Of a stretch of DNA of 64,000 nt, positions 16,926 through 36,561 are shown in pieces. Below the pieces are notes generated by a model. That model saw nothing but the letters and a program-made list of their open reading frames with translations, had not been told where the DNA came from and made no database searches. The stretch's first letter is position 1; each line of letters begins with the position of its first letter. This DNA comes from a virus (taxonomy: Duplodnaviria; Caudoviricetes): positions 96,001 to 160,000 of IMG/VR virus record IMGVR_UViG_3300021387_001709, one strand, 5' to 3'. Position numbers and translations under genes: made by a program.

Positions 16926-16928
16926 GAG

Positions 16929-17000
16929 CAAGGGCGCCAGGTGCCGTCCCCGGTCCTCGCGGGTTAGAGCCGCGCGCACTAGCTGGTATGCTACGCCCCT
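16929..17000 (-). tRNA. amber suppressor tRNA (anticodon CUA), presumed Gln
   Basis: Acceptor AGGGGCG/CGCCCTT+G73, D stem GCAT/GTGC, anticodon arm CGCGG-CTCTAAC-CCGCG, T arm CCGGG-GACGGCA-CCTGG; CCA not encoded. Confidence 0.88.
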
Positions 17001-22501: not shown

Positions 22502-22556
22502 AACCTTTTACCTCCTTTTAATCATATTGATTTTACCATATTTATCACTGGCAAAT

Positions 22557-22625
22557 AGAATATGTACGACTCGAACGTCTCCCCTTCGTCCCAGGCGAAG
22601 TGTGCTACCATTACACCACATACTC
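22557..22625 (-). tRNA. tRNA-Pro(UGG)-like, degenerate
   Basis: GAGTATG/CATATTC acceptor, CTTCG-CCTGGGA-CGAAG anticodon arm, TTCGAGT T loop; C33 and a defective T stem. Confidence 0.6.
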
Positions 22626-22637
22626 TAAAATAATAAA

Positions 22638-27902: not shown

Positions 27903-27935
27903 AAAAAATAAAGGGAGTGTTGTTTCACTCCCTTT
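27903..27935 (-). terminator. intrinsic terminator after HU gene
   Basis: AAAGGGAGTG/CACTCCCTTT stem plus T-run. Confidence 0.6.
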
Positions 27936-27956
27936 AATAAATAATCAAATAAAAAA

Positions 27957-28232
27957 TTATGCGTTAACAGCTTCCTTTACGCTTGCACCAAATTTTACCT
28001 TCGGCGCTTCTTTAGCCGGAATAGCAAGAGGTTCGCCATTCTGCGGATTGCGTCCGGTATAAGCGTCTTTGTGAACCGTATAGAACTTCATACCGGTAAA
28101 CGGAGTAACGCCGTCCTCGGTCTTCATAGCCTCTACAATAGCCTCGCCGACACCGACAAGAACTTCCCTCATATCCTTCTGGGAAAGATTACATTTAGCT
28201 GCGCAAAGTTTTACAAAATCAAGTTTCTTCAT
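27957..28232 (-). CDS. hup: HU-like DNA-binding protein
   Basis: GRNPQNGEPLAIPAK..PKVKFGASVKEAVN. Confidence 0.9.
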   Translation of the reverse strand: MKKLDFVKLCAAKCNLSQKDMREVLVGVGEAIVEAMKTEDGVTPFTGMKFYTVHKDAYTGRNPQNGEPLAIPAKEAPKVKFGASVKEAVNA

Positions 28233-28393
28233 AATATAGTTCTCCTTTTTTTCCTTAATATAATTGTATAATTGAATTTACGCCATTCTCGGCAATATAG
28301 CGTAAATGTAGTAAACATAAGGGTTTATGATCCCTCATGAGGTGACGATATGGCAATCCCCAAAACCCTTATATTTACTGGGTTTTTAATACT

Positions 28394-31338
28394 TCATTTT
28401 TTCTTATGTGATCCCACATTTTTAGGCAATTCCTTTTTAAAACAAGACAAAAACACCTTCGGATTTACTTCGTATAATACCTTCATAAGTATTGATTTAT
28501 TTTTATCAGTCTTTCTGGCTATAGTGTCGGCTTGTCCCTTAACAGAAGGAGATAGCGAAAATGCCCTATTGATTAAATAGCATACTAAATCTTTATATTT
28601 CATACTCATGCGGATTTGTCTAATGTCATTGATTAAATCATCAAAATCACTTCTTGCCAAAAGAAACTCCTTCTCGTATTCTCCGTCTTCTATATATCCG
28701 TCGCGGATTGTATCATAGAATTTAATAGAGTATTTCTCAATCAACTCCTCAATTTTACGGCTTACTTTTCTATCCCCTTTAAATGGGATATGCTCCATAA
28801 AGTCCCACAAGTCAACAGTATCTTTAGTAAACTTGGATTTATCTATTTTGAGGTCTGCTAAATAATTCATAGGGCAGTGAAGATCATAATTTATTTTATC
28901 CGCAGAAAATCCTCTTTTGATAATACGCCAAAATTTCGGATAACCGTTAGTGTCTATATCCATGTCTTTCTGAATACGTGCAATCTCGTCCGAAATAGAA
29001 ATATCAAATTGGCGCTTCGCGGAATCAATAGCCGCCTGGGCTATAACGCTAAGGATTGCCACATAGTCGTCATATTTCCTATCATGGAACGTATATGAAT
29101 AAGTCTGGGCAAGCTGGGCGAGGTTGGATGATAACCCTATATCAAGCTGCGATTTTGCCAGTGCGTTATCAATCGCCGCATAATCGTCCATAGTATTATT
29201 GTATTTGTTAGTGTCCTTAGGAATATTATTAACAATAGTAGGATAGGTTCTATAGCAATACTCCGCATGACGGACAATGTCCGGTTGATTAGTAACATAC
29301 ATTGAATCGCTGTCCTGATCTGCAATTCTTATTAATGAGGCTCTTTATCCTCATGCCGGAATTTCTCCCGGGATTGGACTATCTCTTCACCAATGATTTA
29401 TCATTACGGTGTTCCGCACTCGTGTTCAAAATCTTTTTCGTCAGATTTTGATTAGTCTCTAAACTTGTGTTGCCTACTTTAACCGAATTCGGCAACCTTA
29501 GTAATTGATTGGCATACGGCGAATTCTCACCGGTTAGCGTTCCAATTTTCACGGAATAGTTTTTGAACCGGGTTTCCCCGGAACCGGCCCAGTTAGACAA
29601 AGCCATTGCAACGATCTTGTACATCTGTACCAATCATATTGACCGCAATTATCTGGTCACTAAACTTAAAATACTTTTTCATCCTATCATCATAATGATT
29701 ATGCATATGCATCATGTTAAACTTGCCGTTAAACGGACTACGAAATCCCGCCAAATATTCGTCATCATCAAATCGGCTGGTATAGCACTGAACAGTTCCT
29801 TGCTCCTTGAGCAATGTATTATCTAAATCTACATCATCCGGATTACCGGTAGCTGCGTACAACAACATAGCATACGGCGATCCAACAATGACAAGATTGT
29901 CTGCATTTTGGATAAGTTTACCGCTTTTGATATTTTTAACATAGTTATAAATTATGTATTTCTTTCTGTCGCGGTAATACGAACACCGGGTAAACTCCTG
30001 ATTCCATTCACATAACGCCAAAAGTACGGCGTAGTCATTTGCGAAGTTTATATTCTTTCTTAGGTAATCATGAAATACAGCCTCGTCATTTTTTAACTGC
30101 TGAATGTAATTAACTGTTTCGGCACATACAGCGTCCATTGTATCCTCGTCTAACGAATTTATAACTTGATACGACATCCTCTGATAGTTACCTAGTTTAC
30201 TGGGATGAGAATACTTCACCACGCCAAACCGACACCCGTTTGACTCAACCCATTTACACCAATAATCATACGACAGATCAAACTTAATCCATTTGACGGC
30301 GTTGTTGGTAGTAATTAACTCTATATCTTTAACATAATGATCATTACCCCAAATGTCCTTCACAGTATATGTGGCGTAATCCTCACCGTGTTCCTCACAC
30401 CAATCTCGGAAGAATTGTTTTATATTTGCATGAAACGCAGCCATCTTAGTAAAGTGATGGCGTAACAACACATATCCATTCGCCCACTCCGGAAACACTG
30501 AATCATCAATCAACGCCTGACCGTCAAACAATTCGTTACTTAGTTCATATTCATCCAGCCATTTTGCATAACAATGGCGACGCTCATCAGTTTCTATAGT
30601 AACAACATCTCGCGTGAAATACCGCTTGACATCATTAAGCACCAATATATTACGAGGATTAATAATTGCATAGCCAACAATCCCACTGGCAACCAGTGGA
30701 GCATAAGCAGATATCTCTACAATAGGTGCATTTGTTGCAGGCAGTTTAATCCCCATATAGAGGAAATTCCGCGCTTTATCAAACAATTCATCACGGATAA
30801 ACATACAGCTACCTTTTTTAGCTTTACCCGTGGAGCGGAAGAGCATTTTGTAATGGATGACTTCTTCCTTATATATAGTACCGTCTTTTTTCCGCGACAC
30901 GTACTTTACGTCAACACCATTATTATAGTAATCACTACGAACCCGATCTTTCATCCGCCGAGTGTATTGATCCTTATTCTCGTAGGTAGCTTCGAATAAT
31001 TGATTGAGTTTGGCAATTTTGTTTTTAGCCTTGGCAATCAAATATTCGTCATCTTTGACCACGGCACTCCGGTATTCGTTACGGGCAGTTTTCAGTGTTT
31101 TATATAAGTGGTCGATTTCGTCCCGGTAAGATCTAGTCTTGAAGTTAAACTCCAAACCAATCACATCCCGTGTGGCACCACTGTTGCTAACGAATAGCCC
31201 GTTCTCCATTAAGAAGTCGAGGAACAAGCTATTTACCAACATCGCCCGTTTATACTCAAAGTGATCGCGTAATCCCAAATTATACTCATAATTTGTACTG
31301 GCTTCTATATTTTTAATTTCAACTCCGTACTCGCTGAT
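28394..31338 (-). CDS. yonO: YonO-like single-chain RNA polymerase; exons 29601-31338 and 28394-29322; probable ATC start; no TAG
   Basis: RSTGKAKKG, DGQALID, FRSP, spliced catalytic RCNGSDQDSD, AIDSAKR; adjacent to HU as in SPbeta. Confidence 0.85.
29323..29600 (-). mobile_element. group I intron, ORF-less, 278 nt, in RNAP active-site motif
   Basis: P1 GGCU/GGCC with U.G, R AGAGACUA, S AGAGAUAGUCC, terminal G 29323. Confidence 0.88.
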
Positions 31339-31671
31339 TTATACCGCCCCCTCAGTGGATAAACCAAATAAATAATCATACAGCTCTTCGGGCGATTTCA
31401 TAGAATGCTTGATACCGTGAGGATCGGTATATTCCTGGTTGGCTTTGCCGTGTCCGTAGTTCTTCTCCAGACAAAACGTAGTCACCGCGTCGAAGTCTGT
31501 ATCTTCTGGAATAAGTAGTTTCAGTAGCTTAAGAACCACCTCATTATTATCCGGTTCAATTAAATAACCGTCCACATTATGTTTTTTGTATAAACTGTTT
31601 TTGGCGTTCTGATAATCATCCACCCGCGCCATTGACTCAATCGCCGCCACAAAATCTGATTTAGTTATCAA
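31339..31671 (-). CDS. hypothetical protein, paralog of 31661-32014
   Basis: Shared FC.E.N(Y/F)G and LYDYL motifs. Confidence 0.7.
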   Translation of the reverse strand: MITKSDFVAAIESMARVDDYQNAKNSLYKKHNVDGYLIEPDNNEVVLKLLKLLIPEDTDFDAVTTFCLEKNYGHGKANQEYTDPHGIKHSMKSPEELYDYLFGLSTEGAV

Positions 31672-32014
31672 TAGTATCTCTCCCCTTATTTTTATCCATC
31701 ATCATTATCAAATAATCATACAAAGCTCCGGCTGTATTAAGCGGATATTCCTCTCCGTCAACAACATTCTTAAATTCGCCGCCATAATACTTACCGAAAT
31801 TCAATTCAAAACAAAACCAACTTATGACTTCCAGTTTGTCATCAAACATCGCTTCAAGAACATCCGCCAGTTTAAACACACAATTTTGCGGACACCAATC
31901 AACATAATATCCATCGGAAAATTCCCGCCCTGCTTCATTGATAGCATCATCAAAACGTATTGTTTGTTCCATAGCAGATATAGTCGCAAGAAAAGCTTCC
32001 TTATTTAATAGCAT
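31661..32014 (-). CDS. hypothetical protein, paralog of 31339-31671
   Basis: Shared motifs. Confidence 0.7.
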   Translation of the reverse strand: MLLNKEAFLATISAMEQTIRFDDAINEAGREFSDGYYVDWCPQNCVFKLADVLEAMFDDKLEVISWFCFELNFGKYYGGEFKNVVDGEEYPLNTAGALYDYLIMMMDKNKGRDTIDN

Positions 32015-32027
32015 GGATAATTCCCCC

Positions 32028-32786
32028 TTACTGATTGTACTTGCGAATCATTGCGCGGACACATCCCCTTACTAAGTCAGCGCCTGAAATTTGAGGGGCA
32101 GTGTTTGGCGTCACCGGTCCGGCTATATTTTCATACACATTAGTAACTACCTTTTTCATTTCGACGTCAGTGAAATTCCCCTTGAGCTTATTACAGGTTG
32201 GGTGTACGGCGCGGAGATTGTCTATATTATTCGTACCGCCGCGAGACAATGGGATTCTATGATCGATAGAGTACTGGAATCTAGATATTGGCTTTCCGCA
32301 AATCTCGCACGTTCCACCGGACCTTCGGAATACTTCTTCTTTGATAGCTTTAGGAATAAGCACACGCTCAGACGAATCCATGCCGGAGAACGTATCAGAA
32401 GTAGGTTTCTTAACAGGGGTAGTTTTTCCCATCTGTTTTACGTGGCGAAATTTGTCATCAATAACGATTCGTAAATCTCGATCTATATAATCCAGCACAG
32501 ATTCCATATGGGAATATGCTTCCTCAGCAGTCGCAAACGCTCGTGCTTTCTTGACGTCATTAACAGTAGTATCATCATTGCTCAAAAACTTCATTCTGGT
32601 AGTAACGACGTAGTCATTACCTTTGGATGAGGTTCTGGTCCTGTACCACATATAGGTATCCGGCGAACGATTGACTGCTCTCTGGGCATCCGCCATCTTC
32701 ATATGAGTGGCTGCAGACGGGGTAGGGGCAAATTGCCCGATTCCCCGCAAAAACTGAATGTTATTAGCTATATAATATTTGCTCAT
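32028..32786 (-). CDS. HNH endonuclease domain protein
   Basis: CEICG...IDHRIPLSRGGTNNIDNL...HPTCNKLKG. Confidence 0.85.
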   Translation of the reverse strand: MSKYYIANNIQFLRGIGQFAPTPSAATHMKMADAQRAVNRSPDTYMWYRTRTSSKGNDYVVTTRMKFLSNDDTTVNDVKKARAFATAEEAYSHMESVLDYIDRDLRIVIDDKFRHVKQMGKTTPVKKPTSDTFSGMDSSERVLIPKAIKEEVFRRSGGTCEICGKPISRFQYSIDHRIPLSRGGTNNIDNLRAVHPTCNKLKGNFTDVEMKKVVTNVYENIAGPVTPNTAPQISGADLVRGCVRAMIRKYNQ

Positions 32787-32801
32787 TGTAATCATCCCTC
32801 C

Positions 32802-33848
32802 TTACTTCGCCGCTGCAAGTTCCTGAAGCGCATTTACCAAGTTCGGAAATTTACTAACCGCGAACCATACGTTGCATCTATCAATGTTGAACTCATCATG
32901 AATCTGAGAAACAATATCTGCCTCACTCATATTTGTAGCTTGCAAAATCTGGCGAAGAATTTTACGGTACTGAACTCCGGACGGACGAGAAGCACCGGTA
33001 ATTTTTTTGATCAGCGCAGAAATGTCGCCGGGACATCTGTGGGATTCTGCATAGCTTACTTTCGGCGCTTTCGCTTTAATACCTTCTACAGATTTAACAT
33101 AATTCTTATAGTGAATATTATTGATACGTTTCTCCACACTAAGACGAAGAGCGTCAGAGTTCGCACACATCTTGATAATATCTGCGGTAGAATCAATCTT
33201 TTTATACTGGGAGAGAAGCTCCCCCACATCATAATGATCGACCCTTTTCATGTCAGAATAAAGAATCTCATAGAATTCATCGGTAGTTTTGCAACCGGTT
33301 TCCAGACACTTTGTGCAAGCAATCCCATCAATCCTTTTAATCCACATAGTTTTATCATTTTCATCAAAGGTGGAGTAGAATAACCCGTTAACATCTATGG
33401 GCTTATTAGCTGATGAAAATGCTTTTTCAGTTTTGGCAGCATTCACATAGATAGCCTTGGCGATAGTGTCTGAAGCGGTTTTGTTTGATTCAACAAGCTT
33501 ATTAAGCGCTAATTCCTGATGCTTCTGAGAAAAACATAAATCCTGGACGCACTTAGCGATATCAGCATTTGATTTCGCAAAGGTACTTATCCCGTCGGCA
33601 ATTCTATTAAATGCATTAGTCTGGTGTCCAAGAACAAGCATCATGTCCTGTATATTCTCCGAAAATTTTTTTAATTCAGATACTGTTGAGTTAAGAGATT
33701 TGATTGCTTCTTTTGTCTGAGTGAGTAATTCAATAACGGCATTCTTTTCCGGGACTCCCAAAATCTCGCGGAATGTAGCAAGTTCATCATGAGTAAGAGA
33801 AGAAGCAGCAGTAGTCGCCGGTGTGAAGGTGCTTTCAGTTGTGCTCAT
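32802..33848 (-). CDS. coiled-coil hypothetical protein
   Basis: 348-aa ORF, RBS GGAGG. Confidence 0.7.
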   Translation of the reverse strand: MSTTESTFTPATTAASSLTHDELATFREILGVPEKNAVIELLTQTKEAIKSLNSTVSELKKFSENIQDMMLVLGHQTNAFNRIADGISTFAKSNADIAKCVQDLCFSQKHQELALNKLVESNKTASDTIAKAIYVNAAKTEKAFSSANKPIDVNGLFYSTFDENDKTMWIKRIDGIACTKCLETGCKTTDEFYEILYSDMKRVDHYDVGELLSQYKKIDSTADIIKMCANSDALRLSVEKRINNIHYKNYVKSVEGIKAKAPKVSYAESHRCPGDISALIKKITGASRPSGVQYRKILRQILQATNMSEADIVSQIHDEFNIDRCNVWFAVSKFPNLVNALQELAAAK

Positions 33849-33895: not shown

Positions 33896-34966
33896 TTACT
33901 CAACATCAATTATAGTAGGTGCTTTAAAACGCTTAAGAACGTCCTCCGCAGCGCAAATAACTTTAGTGCAAGCGTCGATTATATGGGTGCCGCATAAATT
34001 GTCTTGATTGTTAATAATCAAATCATCATAAAGCATTGGGGCAAGAACTGTGTCTATGTAGGTCTTAGTTGCTTGCCAGAAGGTATACGCAACGTTGGCA
34101 TCGCGACCCTCTGCAGATGTACTGCGACTACGTAGAATTTCAACTTCCTTTTTATAAGTAGCTAATTCGCTGCGAAGGTATTCAATTTCATTAGATGAAG
34201 CACTAGATTGATTATAAGAATTCACAGATTCTAATGCCGCAATTTTAGATTCCATTTCTTTTATCTGAGAATTTTTTAAATTGGATTCTTCTTGTAATTT
34301 TTTTATTTTTTCTTCGGCTTGTCTTTGAGATATGTAGGTACCGTCCGTAATAAGTTCGCCAGCTAATTTTTTCTGTTGATCCTGTGGCAGCTGCCTCATA
34401 ATCGCAAGAGCCGTAGTAGAGGTTATAACTCCGGTAGTAATAAGTTCCTCAATTTCGGGGATAGCATCCGCGAGTTTCTTATAATTATGATATGAAGGAA
34501 TAGACATATTATATTCTTCGGCAAGTTCCTTTTGAGTTTTTGAGGACTTATAATTATTAGAAGTCCCCGATATCTGATTATTCCCATGGTGAATTCCATA
34601 ATATCCTTCAAGGAATTTCAAACACTTGCCTAACTTAATAGGATTATTATTCCCTGATACTCGCTGTTTGAGATTTGATTCGATCAAATCCTTTACGTCT
34701 TTTGGATAATCGCCCCCGAGTTCTTCGTCTGAATATGTTATACGAATATATGGAATGGAGGCAATTCCCAAAATTTCGCATGCCCGGACACGTTGATGCC
34801 CAGAGATTATCACATTGTTATTATCTATAGTTATTGCGTTAGTAATCCCGGAAGTTTTTATAGATTGCAAAAAGTCTTCCCAGTTGTCGCCGGTGATATC
34901 ATCAAAGTAGTAGCTGTTTAGTGGATGTGGTGTGAGCAAAGTAATGGGGATTAGTTCGGCGCTCAT
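33896..34966 (-). CDS. ParB/Srx N-terminal domain protein with HTH
   Basis: LTPHPLN, IISGHQRVRAC, IESNLKQR, TQKELAEEY. Confidence 0.85.
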   Translation of the reverse strand: MSAELIPITLLTPHPLNSYYFDDITGDNWEDFLQSIKTSGITNAITIDNNNVIISGHQRVRACEILGIASIPYIRITYSDEELGGDYPKDVKDLIESNLKQRVSGNNNPIKLGKCLKFLEGYYGIHHGNNQISGTSNNYKSSKTQKELAEEYNMSIPSYHNYKKLADAIPEIEELITTGVITSTTALAIMRQLPQDQQKKLAGELITDGTYISQRQAEEKIKKLQEESNLKNSQIKEMESKIAALESVNSYNQSSASSNEIEYLRSELATYKKEVEILRSRSTSAEGRDANVAYTFWQATKTYIDTVLAPMLYDDLIINNQDNLCGTHIIDACTKVICAAEDVLKRFKAPTIIDVE

Positions 34967-35016
34967 AATATATTCCTTCCTAATGATAATACGGAATTTA
35001 ATAATTAATTAGTCGG

Positions 35017-35067
35017 TTATATTTGCTACTAATACGGCGGTGGCAGTTGATAGCGGAAAATTCTCAT
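35017..35067 (-). CDS. candidate leader peptide MRIFRYQLPPPY(TAG)(TAG)QI
   Basis: AGGAGG RBS 8 nt before ATG, between promoter and ParB gene. Confidence 0.55.
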
Positions 35068-35105
35068 AGTTGGTACCTCCTGGCTAAAATTATCTCGGTA
35101 GGTTA

Positions 35106-35134
35106 ACTATAGCATAGCGATTTACTTATGTCAA
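35106..35134 (-). promoter_or_regulatory. sigmaA promoter
   Basis: TTGACA-17-TATAGT with extended TG. Confidence 0.75.
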
Positions 35135-35319
35135 GCGGATTTAATAAATAATCATAAGATAATAAACCGCCGGATGTGAAAGTGTGAAAAATCGAGGGTA
35201 TTTTGGAACGATTTGTCACATATGTGCTAAAATAAGCACAAATTCACATGAGCCAATTTATACTACCATGTCCAAAAAATTCCAAATTTAGCACATGTGT
35301 TACTGTGAGGGAACACCAC

Positions 35320-36561
35320 TTAGTTAGCGATGGCGCTAACTTCATCAATCCAGGCTATTAACAGTTCCCTCATTCGGCGACTGGGAATATAAATCCAAAT
35401 TTCTTTACCGTCTCGAATTGCCGATCTCCAAATCCACTGTAGCATTTCGGAAAGTGCATAGCCGTCTTCATCAACAGTAACGCCATTCATAGTGAAGTAA
35501 TTTTTAATAAACACATTAATATACTTATTAATAGGATAAGCAATCACGTTACGATCTCTGTAGTCATTTGTTGCTCTTAAATTACTCGGGATATATCCGC
35601 GCCCATAACCTTTGCCGGAAATATACTTTTTGTAATCCTTGAAACAAGTCCATAAATTATTAGAAGTCGGCGACTTCATAATATTATGGAAGTAATTAAA
35701 CATATTGTCCTTAAGTCGTTTTATAACCACATTCTCGGATTGGCAATTTCGCATATACCAACTTTTGCTTAGATCAGTGTCTAGATTGCCGATCGCATTC
35801 AGCTTGGCGTTATCACATATATGGATGAGTGATTTATAATCGGTAGTTAATACTGTATCTTCCGGAGTAGCGGAAAATCTATAATTGCTTACATCATCTC
35901 CATTTACATACAAATAGGAATATTCTAACTCATAATAATCATAGTAATACTTTTGGATTTGCGCTTCAAACATATAAGTGAGTATATATATTTTGTTAAA
36001 CGCATTAAATGCCTGGATTGGGAATAGCCATACAACAATTTCATCATCATATTTTGCCAGACAGCCGAGATCACACAGCCTTTTTTCTTTGGAAAATTTT
36101 CCGCCGTTATAATTTTTCTTGGACGGTTTCCAATTAAGAAGTCTGGTGGTAGGATCTACATCTACATATTTTTCTAGCAATGTAGCGGCATCGTCGGATT
36201 TTATATCATATTTTTCCACTACGTTACTTACTTCGTCCATAATTAATGTATAGTTCTGGCTTCGGCAAATATCAATCAGCTCCTGATCAAACAAACTAAA
36301 CAACGCGTGAGTGGAAGCAATATTTTTACCGCGATTCATCAACATTTTGAGGTGGCGGGTCTTGGTGCCGTATTTATCCTCCGGCATTACAAAATTTTTA
36401 TCTCGGCAGCTCGGAATTATACGTTCGTTAATTTCCTGGAGATATGGAGTAATATATAGGTATCTTTCGTCATCATGGGAATTAATATAGTTTATTGCCG
36501 CCCAGGATTTACCTCGTCCCATTATCTCATCAACAACAAATACTTCACAATTATACTTCAT
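35320..36561 (-). CDS. superfamily 2 helicase-like protein (SPbeta YonV-like)
   Basis: VDEIMGRGKS, YITPY, THALF, LIMDEV, LQWIWRSAIR. Confidence 0.78.
   Translation of the reverse strand: MKYNCEVFVVDEIMGRGKSWAAINYINSHDDERYLYITPYLQEINERIIPSCRDKNFVMPEDKYGTKTRHLKMLMNRGKNIASTHALFSLFDQELIDICRSQNYTLIMDEVSNVVEKYDIKSDDAATLLEKYVDVDPTTRLLNWKPSKKNYNGGKFSKEKRLCDLGCLAKYDDEIVVWLFPIQAFNAFNKIYILTYMFEAQIQKYYYDYYELEYSYLYVNGDDVSNYRFSATPEDTVLTTDYKSLIHICDNAKLNAIGNLDTDLSKSWYMRNCQSENVVIKRLKDNMFNYFHNIMKSPTSNNLWTCFKDYKKYISGKGYGRGYIPSNLRATNDYRDRNVIAYPINKYINVFIKNYFTMNGVTVDEDGYALSEMLQWIWRSAIRDGKEIWIYIPSRRMRELLIAWIDEVSAIAN

Follow-up and report, generated by a model that had tools for sequence, protein, structure and literature searches.

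PepNL, the leader peptide of Escherichia coli pepN, consists of 14 residues and blocks its own release at a UGA codon (Ando et al. 2025, PMC11890864). The arrest is relieved when Trp-tRNA reads the stop codon through, and no clear RNA switch connects it to the downstream gene (PMC11890864). A second described system comprises SpyA (S1025), bmrX, and Rae1 of Bacillus subtilis (Deves et al. 2025, PMC12407103). The spyA ORF has 17 codons and shows a peptide-dependent pause at UAG, for which RF1 is the inefficient partner. Rae1 cuts the spyA mRNA 12 nt upstream of the stop codon, and polyproline stalls feed Rae1 too (PMC12407103). Polyproline (PPP) stalls are relieved by EF-P (for example, Starosta et al. 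2014, PMC4176338).

Stop codons also change their meaning in code-15 phages, whose early genes keep the standard code while their late genes are rich in TAG and a suppressor tRNA is present (Borges et al., bioRxiv 10.1101/2021.08.26.457843). Recoding was proposed to time the expression of late genes in these phages. The words leader, uORF, and sensor do not occur in that study, and it describes no element that reads the state of the code (10.1101/2021.08.26.457843). In the literature that we searched, we found no leader ORF described as sensing the state of a code switch in a phage. To our knowledge, release-factor activity at an in-frame stop codon has a single classical sensor in nature, the +1 frameshift of prfB, by which RF2 is autoregulated. 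This frameshift needs a slippery CUU-UGA, an internal Shine-Dalgarno (SD) sequence, and a +1 frame that continues.

We analyzed a window of 64,000 nt, which corresponds to bases 96001-160000 of a 189.8-kb IMG/VR phage record (IMGVR_UViG_3300021387_001709) with an estimated completeness of 98%. The genes diverge from a point at ~37 kb of the window. The minus-strand block from 36561 to 23008 uses the standard code, and below 22501 in-frame TAGs are found in nearly every gene, with a maximum of 70 per gene across the genome. When the RNA polymerase of the phage was searched with tblastn, the matches included Enterocloster phages and human faecal phage contigs, which points to a Lachnospiraceae-type host.

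Within the standard-code block, we examined a leader ORF that had been noticed in a preliminary description. The promoter, the AGGAGG, the 12-codon ORF, and the codons TAG TAG CAA ATA TAA that follow it, which under code 15 give the peptide the C-terminus PPPYQQQI, could all be read exactly on the minus strand. The further observation that the leader holds the only in-frame TAGs found in this part of the arm also agreed with our count: the 16 ORFs between 23008 and 36561 have no in-frame TAG, and none of them ends in TAG. The leader promoter is among the two best sigma-70-like sites on the minus strand between 22 and 38 kb and is kept in all relatives. The SD, the ATG, and the 12 codons are located 22-33 nt from the predicted transcript start and ~60 nt ahead of ParB. 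The SD of ParB lies ~46 nt past the first leader TAG, so a ribosome halted at the TAGs would leave the ParB ribosome-binding site uncovered. In a genome scan for SD-led mini-ORFs of 3-25 codons, the leader was the sole tandem-TAG case that did not continue as a long recoded gene. With the regulatory leader peptides that act at termination, such as TnaC, PepNL, SpeFL, MsrDL, and SpyA, which form a class by function and not by sequence, it shares a short upstream ORF with its own translation signals and, on comparative evidence only, selection at the level of the peptide.

Terminator prediction found no terminator between the leader ORF and ParB (35100-34966) and none before 27936-27909. This suggested that the leader ORF, ParB, the 348-aa gene, the HNH endonuclease gene, the paralogues, and the polymerase gene are carried on one transcript; as far as can be judged from the DNA, the leader thus heads a ParB-HNH-polymerase operon, as had been described. 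The YonO-type polymerase, which is interrupted in the window, is a single 856-aa ORF in G002, a relative of 202 kb, and has 939 aa in a further relative, G005. By analogy with SPbeta YonO, the polymerase behind the leader presumably transcribes the recoded late genes. The gene upstream of the leader promoter is YonV-like. An imperfect inverted repeat (35202-35231 and 35273-35303), with arms of ~30 nt that are ~41-55 nt apart, is located just after this gene and upstream of the leader promoter. The repeat was also found in some relatives, namely L002, L009, and L036, and is absent in others.

Table 1 Features of the leader locus and related features in the window.
Feature	Position in window	Strand	Remark
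Palindrome, upstream copy (AT-rich, core TTAATnATTAA)	35139..35152	-	4 nt before the -35 box
Leader promoter, sigma-70-type	35106..35134	-	TTGACA, 17 nt, TG-n-TATAGT; 11 of 12 matches, extended -10
Leader SD	35076..35081	-	AGGAGG; 8 nt ahead of the ATG (35067); unchanged in all relatives
Leader ORF	35032..35067	-	12 sense codons, M-R-I-F-R-Y-Q-L-P-P-P-Y; direct reading
Proline run	35035..35043	-	CCA CCG CCG; direct reading
Tandem TAG TAG	35026..35031	-	35031-29 and 35028-26; RF1-only stops, Gln once the suppressor is active
CAA, ATA, TAA	35017..35025	-	TAA (35019-17) is the end after read-through; not conserved
Palindrome, second copy	34996..35009	-	Usual place ahead of the first gene's ribosome-binding site
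ParB SD	34981-34974	-	AGGAAGGA; weaker than the leader SD; ParB ATG at 34966
ParB-like gene	33896..34981	-	SD included; HTH_ParB, ParB PHROGs
Rest of operon	27909..33848	-	348-aa gene, HNH endonuclease, two small paralogues, YonO-type RNA polymerase, 91-aa gene, terminator
YonO-type RNA polymerase, interrupted	31278-29593 and 29302-28394	-	561-aa and 302-aa ORFs
Terminator after the polymerase gene	27936-27909	-	First good one downstream of the leader promoter
Further palindrome copies	33875, 27945, 25088	-	~50 more in G000 besides all copies listed here
Further palindrome copies	36948, 36995, 46244, 60043	+	
tRNA-Pro(UGG)	22555..22627	-	Border of the standard-code and recoded blocks
Candidate amber suppressor tRNA (anticodon CUA)	16928..17000	-	Inside the recoded late block; ARAGORN at relaxed threshold only

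The leader is also connected with a motif that is common in this phage. The palindrome TTAATnATTAA, usually in the form GATTAATTATTAAAT, has ~60 matches in the genome. It recurs in gene orientation at two fixed places, where many of the matches are located: 3-5 nt upstream of sigma-70-like -35 boxes, and directly before SD sites. The copies are often paired ~55-60 nt apart and bracket a promoter. Other promoters of the phage have the order motif, promoter, ~25 nt, motif, SD, ATG, and the leader ORF sits inserted between the promoter and the second motif copy of one such pair. Possible roles of the palindrome are those of an operator, an UP element, or an enhancer of translation.

We then compared the leader among relatives. 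Twelve leader-bearing sequences from IMG/VR, Logan, and ENA assemblies gave seven complete 42-nt haplotypes and one partial haplotype. Conservation of the upstream ORF, the PPP, and the tandem TAG had been suggested as a check, and all three were kept in every relative that bears the element. Variation in the leader was limited to codon 2 (AGA, AAA, or GGA, encoding R, K, or G) and to the third positions of Phe4, Leu8, Pro9, Pro10, and Pro11. At least 6 substitutions were found in codons 3-12, and all are synonymous, compared with an expectation of 24% for random single-base changes (P ~2e-4). None of the six columns of TAGTAG varies in the 12 sequences, while all nine of the next nine bases vary. 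Upstream, 5 of the 8 bases of the SD-ATG spacer vary, and the relatives differ by an indel of 11 nt in the 5' UTR. The conserved stretch starts at the SD and the ATG and stops exactly after the second TAG. Of the two-fold and three-fold synonymous sites of the leader, 5 out of 6 are invariant, the exception being Phe4 (TTC or TTT). An extra constraint at the nucleotide level, or a recent spread of the module by recombination, could lie behind part of the conservation. The proline codons of the leader are only CCA or CCG in the relatives. A use of this restriction in sensing tRNA-Pro(UGG) was not supported: the two codons make up 69% of the proline codons in the genome, and the restriction is not significant.

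The sequence past the TAGs behaves differently. The peptide tail after read-through is QQ in three forms, QQQI in three forms, and 10 residues long in two forms. The back-up stop is found 0-9 codons past the TAGs (TAA at once, CAA or CAG followed by ATA TAA, or after nine more codons), so nothing beyond the TAGs is consistently placed. The lack of conservation of the tail suggested that the extension itself has no function.

The gene next to the leader has diverged far more than the leader. In five sequences, the ParB beside the leader has only 40-45% identity, with about half of the codons for its conserved residues unchanged, while the leader is identical at 37-42 of 42 nt. In L009, the leader and ParB are separated by the insertion of a free-standing gene for a 171-aa HNH endonuclease (L009:1971-2486), and the leader has remained next to the promoter. 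In L036 (L036:1-380 against window 34951-35320), the upstream region, the promoter, and the leader are identical or nearly so, while ParB is 42% identical and of the 298-300-aa type of G002. The breakpoint is located between the leader stops and the ParB start. Recombination has helped to keep the promoter-leader block uniform. This tempers the argument from conservation but leaves the synonymous-only pattern unexplained. Together, the synonymous-only changes, the sharp borders, and the divergence of ParB indicate from sequence comparison that the leader is not a chance ORF but is translated and selected for its peptide, and that the second TAG lies within the selected unit.

We next considered how TAG is used in the phage. 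Among standard-code ORFs of at least 100 codons, TAG is the stop codon of 4 out of 126 in the genome of this phage (G000) and 3 out of 122 in G002 (~3%). In late orthologues aligned between the phage and the 202-kb relative, TAG stands opposite Gln 86 times, followed by Glu with 26 times. The candidate suppressor tRNA(CUA), detected with ARAGORN, has 73 nt and a G+C content of 71%, is identical in G001, and was missed by Rfam. With the number of TAGs per gene given above, these are the hallmarks of code 15. The preliminary description, which read the leader under code 15 and invoked a suppressor, is supported by the candidate tRNA and by the pairing of TAG mostly with Gln, but the read-through extension proved to be unconserved. 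No release-factor gene was found in the phage, which makes competition with the RF1 of the host necessary. The only RNA that Rfam found in the window is tRNA-Pro(UGG), which is 100% identical in G001 and G002. A connection of this tRNA with the PPP codons of the leader is only an idea.

In two genes of the otherwise standard-code plus-strand arm outside the window (G000:C1:185688-186221 and 175746-176462), codon 10 is an in-frame TAG and the only one of the gene. The 202-kb relative has one of these TAGs in the equivalent position (G002 34062-34595). The two genes look like individually amber-gated genes.

The leader was found only in the TAG-recoded clade. The three complete or large leader-bearing genomes, G000, G001, and G002, are all TAG-recoded. 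The relative G005 is 99% complete and shares ParB and the polymerase (46% identity). TAG serves as 45 of its 148 stops, its long late ORFs are free of in-frame TAG, and neither a CUA tRNA nor the leader ORF is present. The leader ORF is also absent from 15 other distant ParB loci, most of which have another conserved leader that does not encode a peptide, and no analogous ORF was found at the distant ParB or polymerase loci L005, L016, L017, L034, L035, L042, L043, and L045-L061. A search of viral, metagenome, and genome collections with the back-translated peptide pattern returned only the two known IMG/VR relatives and two chance matches inside unrelated genes. Pfam searches of late proteins gave nothing usable as a marker of recoding in the relatives. 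The scarcity of TAG stops and the distribution in the clade fit a link of the leader with the code switch, but the association is a single phylogenetic event. The confinement of the leader to one small clade also means that recoded phages in general need no such leader.

Some observations in these relatives concern other parts of their genomes. G002 (L023-L033) is heavily recoded, with up to 57 TAGs per gene; even with the relaxed threshold, ARAGORN detected no tRNA with a CUA anticodon there, and G002 has no match to the suppressor sequence of the window. In L045-L060, one of which was shown to use the standard code, a different conserved leader of ~45 nt, which is non-coding, is located before the ParB ribosome-binding site. 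It lies ~40-110 nt upstream of the ParB start and contains CACACTCTCATCTCA and TTGTAACTGTAAA, and GGTACAT/ATGTACC repeats are found upstream of it.

To characterize the leader RNA, we folded it alone and in alignment. The minimum free energy was -15.2 kcal/mol, compared with -21.8 kcal/mol for shuffled sequences, and 200 out of 200 shuffles folded at least as well (z +1.9). The consensus fold of seven sequences reached -4.9 kcal/mol and showed no covariation or compensatory change. This agrees with the preliminary description, in which no attenuator hairpin had been obvious. The folds of the leader contained no conserved pairing that involves the ParB SD. The only invariant pairing, of 5 bp between codons 5-6 and the second TAG, is thermodynamically negligible. 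No output path was visible in the sequence as an alternative pairing, as a terminator between the leader and ParB, or at the distant ParB SD.

Several known mechanisms were compared with the locus and rejected. Attenuation of the trpL or hisL type corresponds to the earlier analogy with leaders that sense tRNA supply. The tandem codons of that analogy are present and invariant (TAG TAG), but the terminator and antiterminator hairpins are not found. Unmasking of a ribosome-binding site as in ermC or cat would involve a sequestering hairpin, which was seen neither in the single-sequence fold nor in the alignment fold. Pairing of the proline codons with a CGGCGG box (35166-35175) was rejected because the box is located upstream of the promoter and is missing from most relatives. 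For ribosome bypassing as in T4 gene 60, from the TAT of the leader to a TAT in frame with ParB ahead of its start, the landing codon exists in the window and L003 but is missing from L014 and L015, and there is no take-off hairpin. For a +1 frameshift as in prfB, the +1 frame after the TAT closes at 11 codons, short of ParB.

As a tentative best explanation, based on analogy with the arrest peptides above, we propose that the leader is a cis-acting leader peptide of the ribosome-arrest type, in which the competition between RF1 and the suppressor would set the dwell time of the ribosome and with it the expression or stability of the ParB-HNH-polymerase mRNA. The operon, with ParB, the HNH nuclease, and the YonO-type RNA polymerase behind the leader, would be transcribed by the host polymerase. 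The nascent ...YQLPPPY would slow the ribosome at the proline run and again at release on UAG. The paused ribosome, probably with a second one queued behind it, would occupy the first ~60 nt of the mRNA. Before the suppressor builds up, the UAGs would be read by RF1 alone. As tRNA-Gln(CUA) accumulates, both UAGs would be decoded, and the ribosome would proceed to the UAA and leave. Two UAGs in tandem could sharpen this response. How long the ribosome dwells on the leader would then decide the fate of the operon mRNA and hence the supply of polymerase, possibly by protection from a 5' exonuclease, as in ermC, or by cleavage behind the paused ribosome, as with SpyA and Rae1. No hairpin switch would be involved. 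Production of the polymerase could in this way be coupled to the state of TAG decoding, with either a negative or a positive sign.

The leader could also act independently of the code, by ribosome loading or by arrest through the proline run alone, so that the identity of the TAGs would be incidental or a tandem-stop safeguard. Such a leader could stall in a manner dependent on EF-P or on Pro-tRNA, or it could stabilize the mRNA by blocking RNase J at the 5' end, like the ermC leader or the polypurine stabilizer of SP82. We consider this possible but doubtful. The strong SD near the 5' end, the unstructured leader, and the invariant PPP are all consistent with it. A stall at codons 10-12 would leave space for one more ribosome over the SD and the start codon, and the 5' end would then be covered. 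A tRNA-Pro(UGG) is carried at the code border. The invariance of TAG rather than TAA is statistically weak when taken alone: with few independent lineages, the synonymous rate of the ORF gives a rough P of 0.03-0.06, which is suggestive but not decisive. However, the second TAG is kept, directly before bases that all vary, although an efficient first stop would make it neutral. A phage that suppresses TAG and so rarely ends its own standard-code genes with it would be expected to use TAA or TGA for a safeguard ORF, and the ORF is missing in the non-recoded relative that has the same operon.

An action of the peptide in trans, for example as a micropeptide with ParB, the polymerase, or a protein of the host as its binding partner, and with the position at the head of the operon serving co-expression only, is very improbable. 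The purifying selection on the peptide, with a free second residue, and the strong translation signals would suit such a product, but they leave the conserved second TAG and the restriction to recoded phages unexplained. The peptide is also very short, has no export signal, and includes a proline run that is costly to translate, and the insertion of the HNH gene in L009 separated the ORF from ParB but not from the promoter.

We regard it as very improbable that the leader is an effector rather than a sensor. It would then be an abundantly translated decoy whose PPPY chain holds RF1 at the UAGs, which would deplete the limited RF1 of the cell and let the suppressor tRNA-Gln prevail at hundreds of late-gene UAGs. 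Such a release block would resemble those of PepNL and TnaC for RF2, or that of apidaecin in trans, of which the leader would be a genetically encoded, cis-acting counterpart. A near-consensus promoter and SD ahead of an unstructured leader, and stops that are tandem, invariant, and read by RF1 only, would be in keeping with a decoy of this kind. Loss of RF1 would be harmless to the phage, which lacks release-factor genes and seldom uses TAG to stop its standard-code genes; the host-type promoter would express the ORF ahead of the late genes. If true, this would explain the way in which recoded phages prevail over the RF1 of the host with no release-factor genes of their own. However, the idea is entirely inferential, and the peptide has no sequence likeness to known release-blocking peptides. 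Titration would need stalled ribosomes in stoichiometric amounts, which rescue systems would clear, and the suppressor, once present, would read through the trap. The remaining explanation is likewise very improbable, namely that the stretch is no gene but a conserved segment of DNA or RNA near the promoter that is open by chance and serves, for example, as a linker for recombination between mosaic modules or as a site bound by a protein: the mosaic junction in L036, with its window-identical block beside a divergent ParB, and the mostly invariant two-fold and three-fold sites could be read in this way, but the changes in codons 3-12 are all synonymous third-position changes, the conservation runs exactly from the SD and ATG to the second TAG, and there is no RNA structure.

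If the leader works as an arrest-type peptide, it would belong with the peptides that are regulated at their stop codon, with PepNL, TnaC, and SpyA with Rae1 as its closest precedents, and it would be confined to a single clade of uncultured phages from the gut. The tna operon leader TnaC resembles it in a proline beside the stop and the lack of an attenuator hairpin, and blocks release at its stop codon, as we propose for the phage leader. In contrast to the phage leader, TnaC needs free tryptophan, acts with UGA and RF2, and hides a Rho loading site in a long spacer, while the spacer of the phage is ~60 nt and AT-rich. SpyA is likewise a short Firmicute ORF with a UAG stop and RF1, and its paused ribosome decides the stability of the mRNA. 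It differs in being located inside an operon, with a single UAG and no proline run, whereas the phage leader is at the head of its operon and has two UAGs and a PPP. PPP motifs usually lie within proteins, while the PPP of the phage is invariant and located one codon before the tandem stops of a 12-codon ORF. Unlike in prfB, the +1 frame of the phage leader, closing after those 11 codons, has nothing fused to it.

PepNL is similar in being a stand-alone ORF of ~14 codons upstream of the regulated gene, with no SD-unmasking hairpin behind its output. PepNL uses UGA, RF2, and the Trp-tRNA of the cell, whereas the phage leader has two UAGs, RF1, and the suppressor tRNA of the phage, and the two have no sequence likeness. 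The arrest of PepNL was demonstrated, while that of the phage leader is a proposal from analogy. The leader is a small, sharply bounded, and strongly selected element of 51 nt in front of the phage's own polymerase. Should it prove not to respond to UAG, it would still be a new polyproline leader peptide of an uncultured Firmicute phage. If it does respond to UAG, it would be, within the literature searched, the first natural regulatory device that senses the state of the genetic code, and it would extend the principle of PepNL, that read-through cancels an arrest at a stop codon, to the conflict between virus and host.
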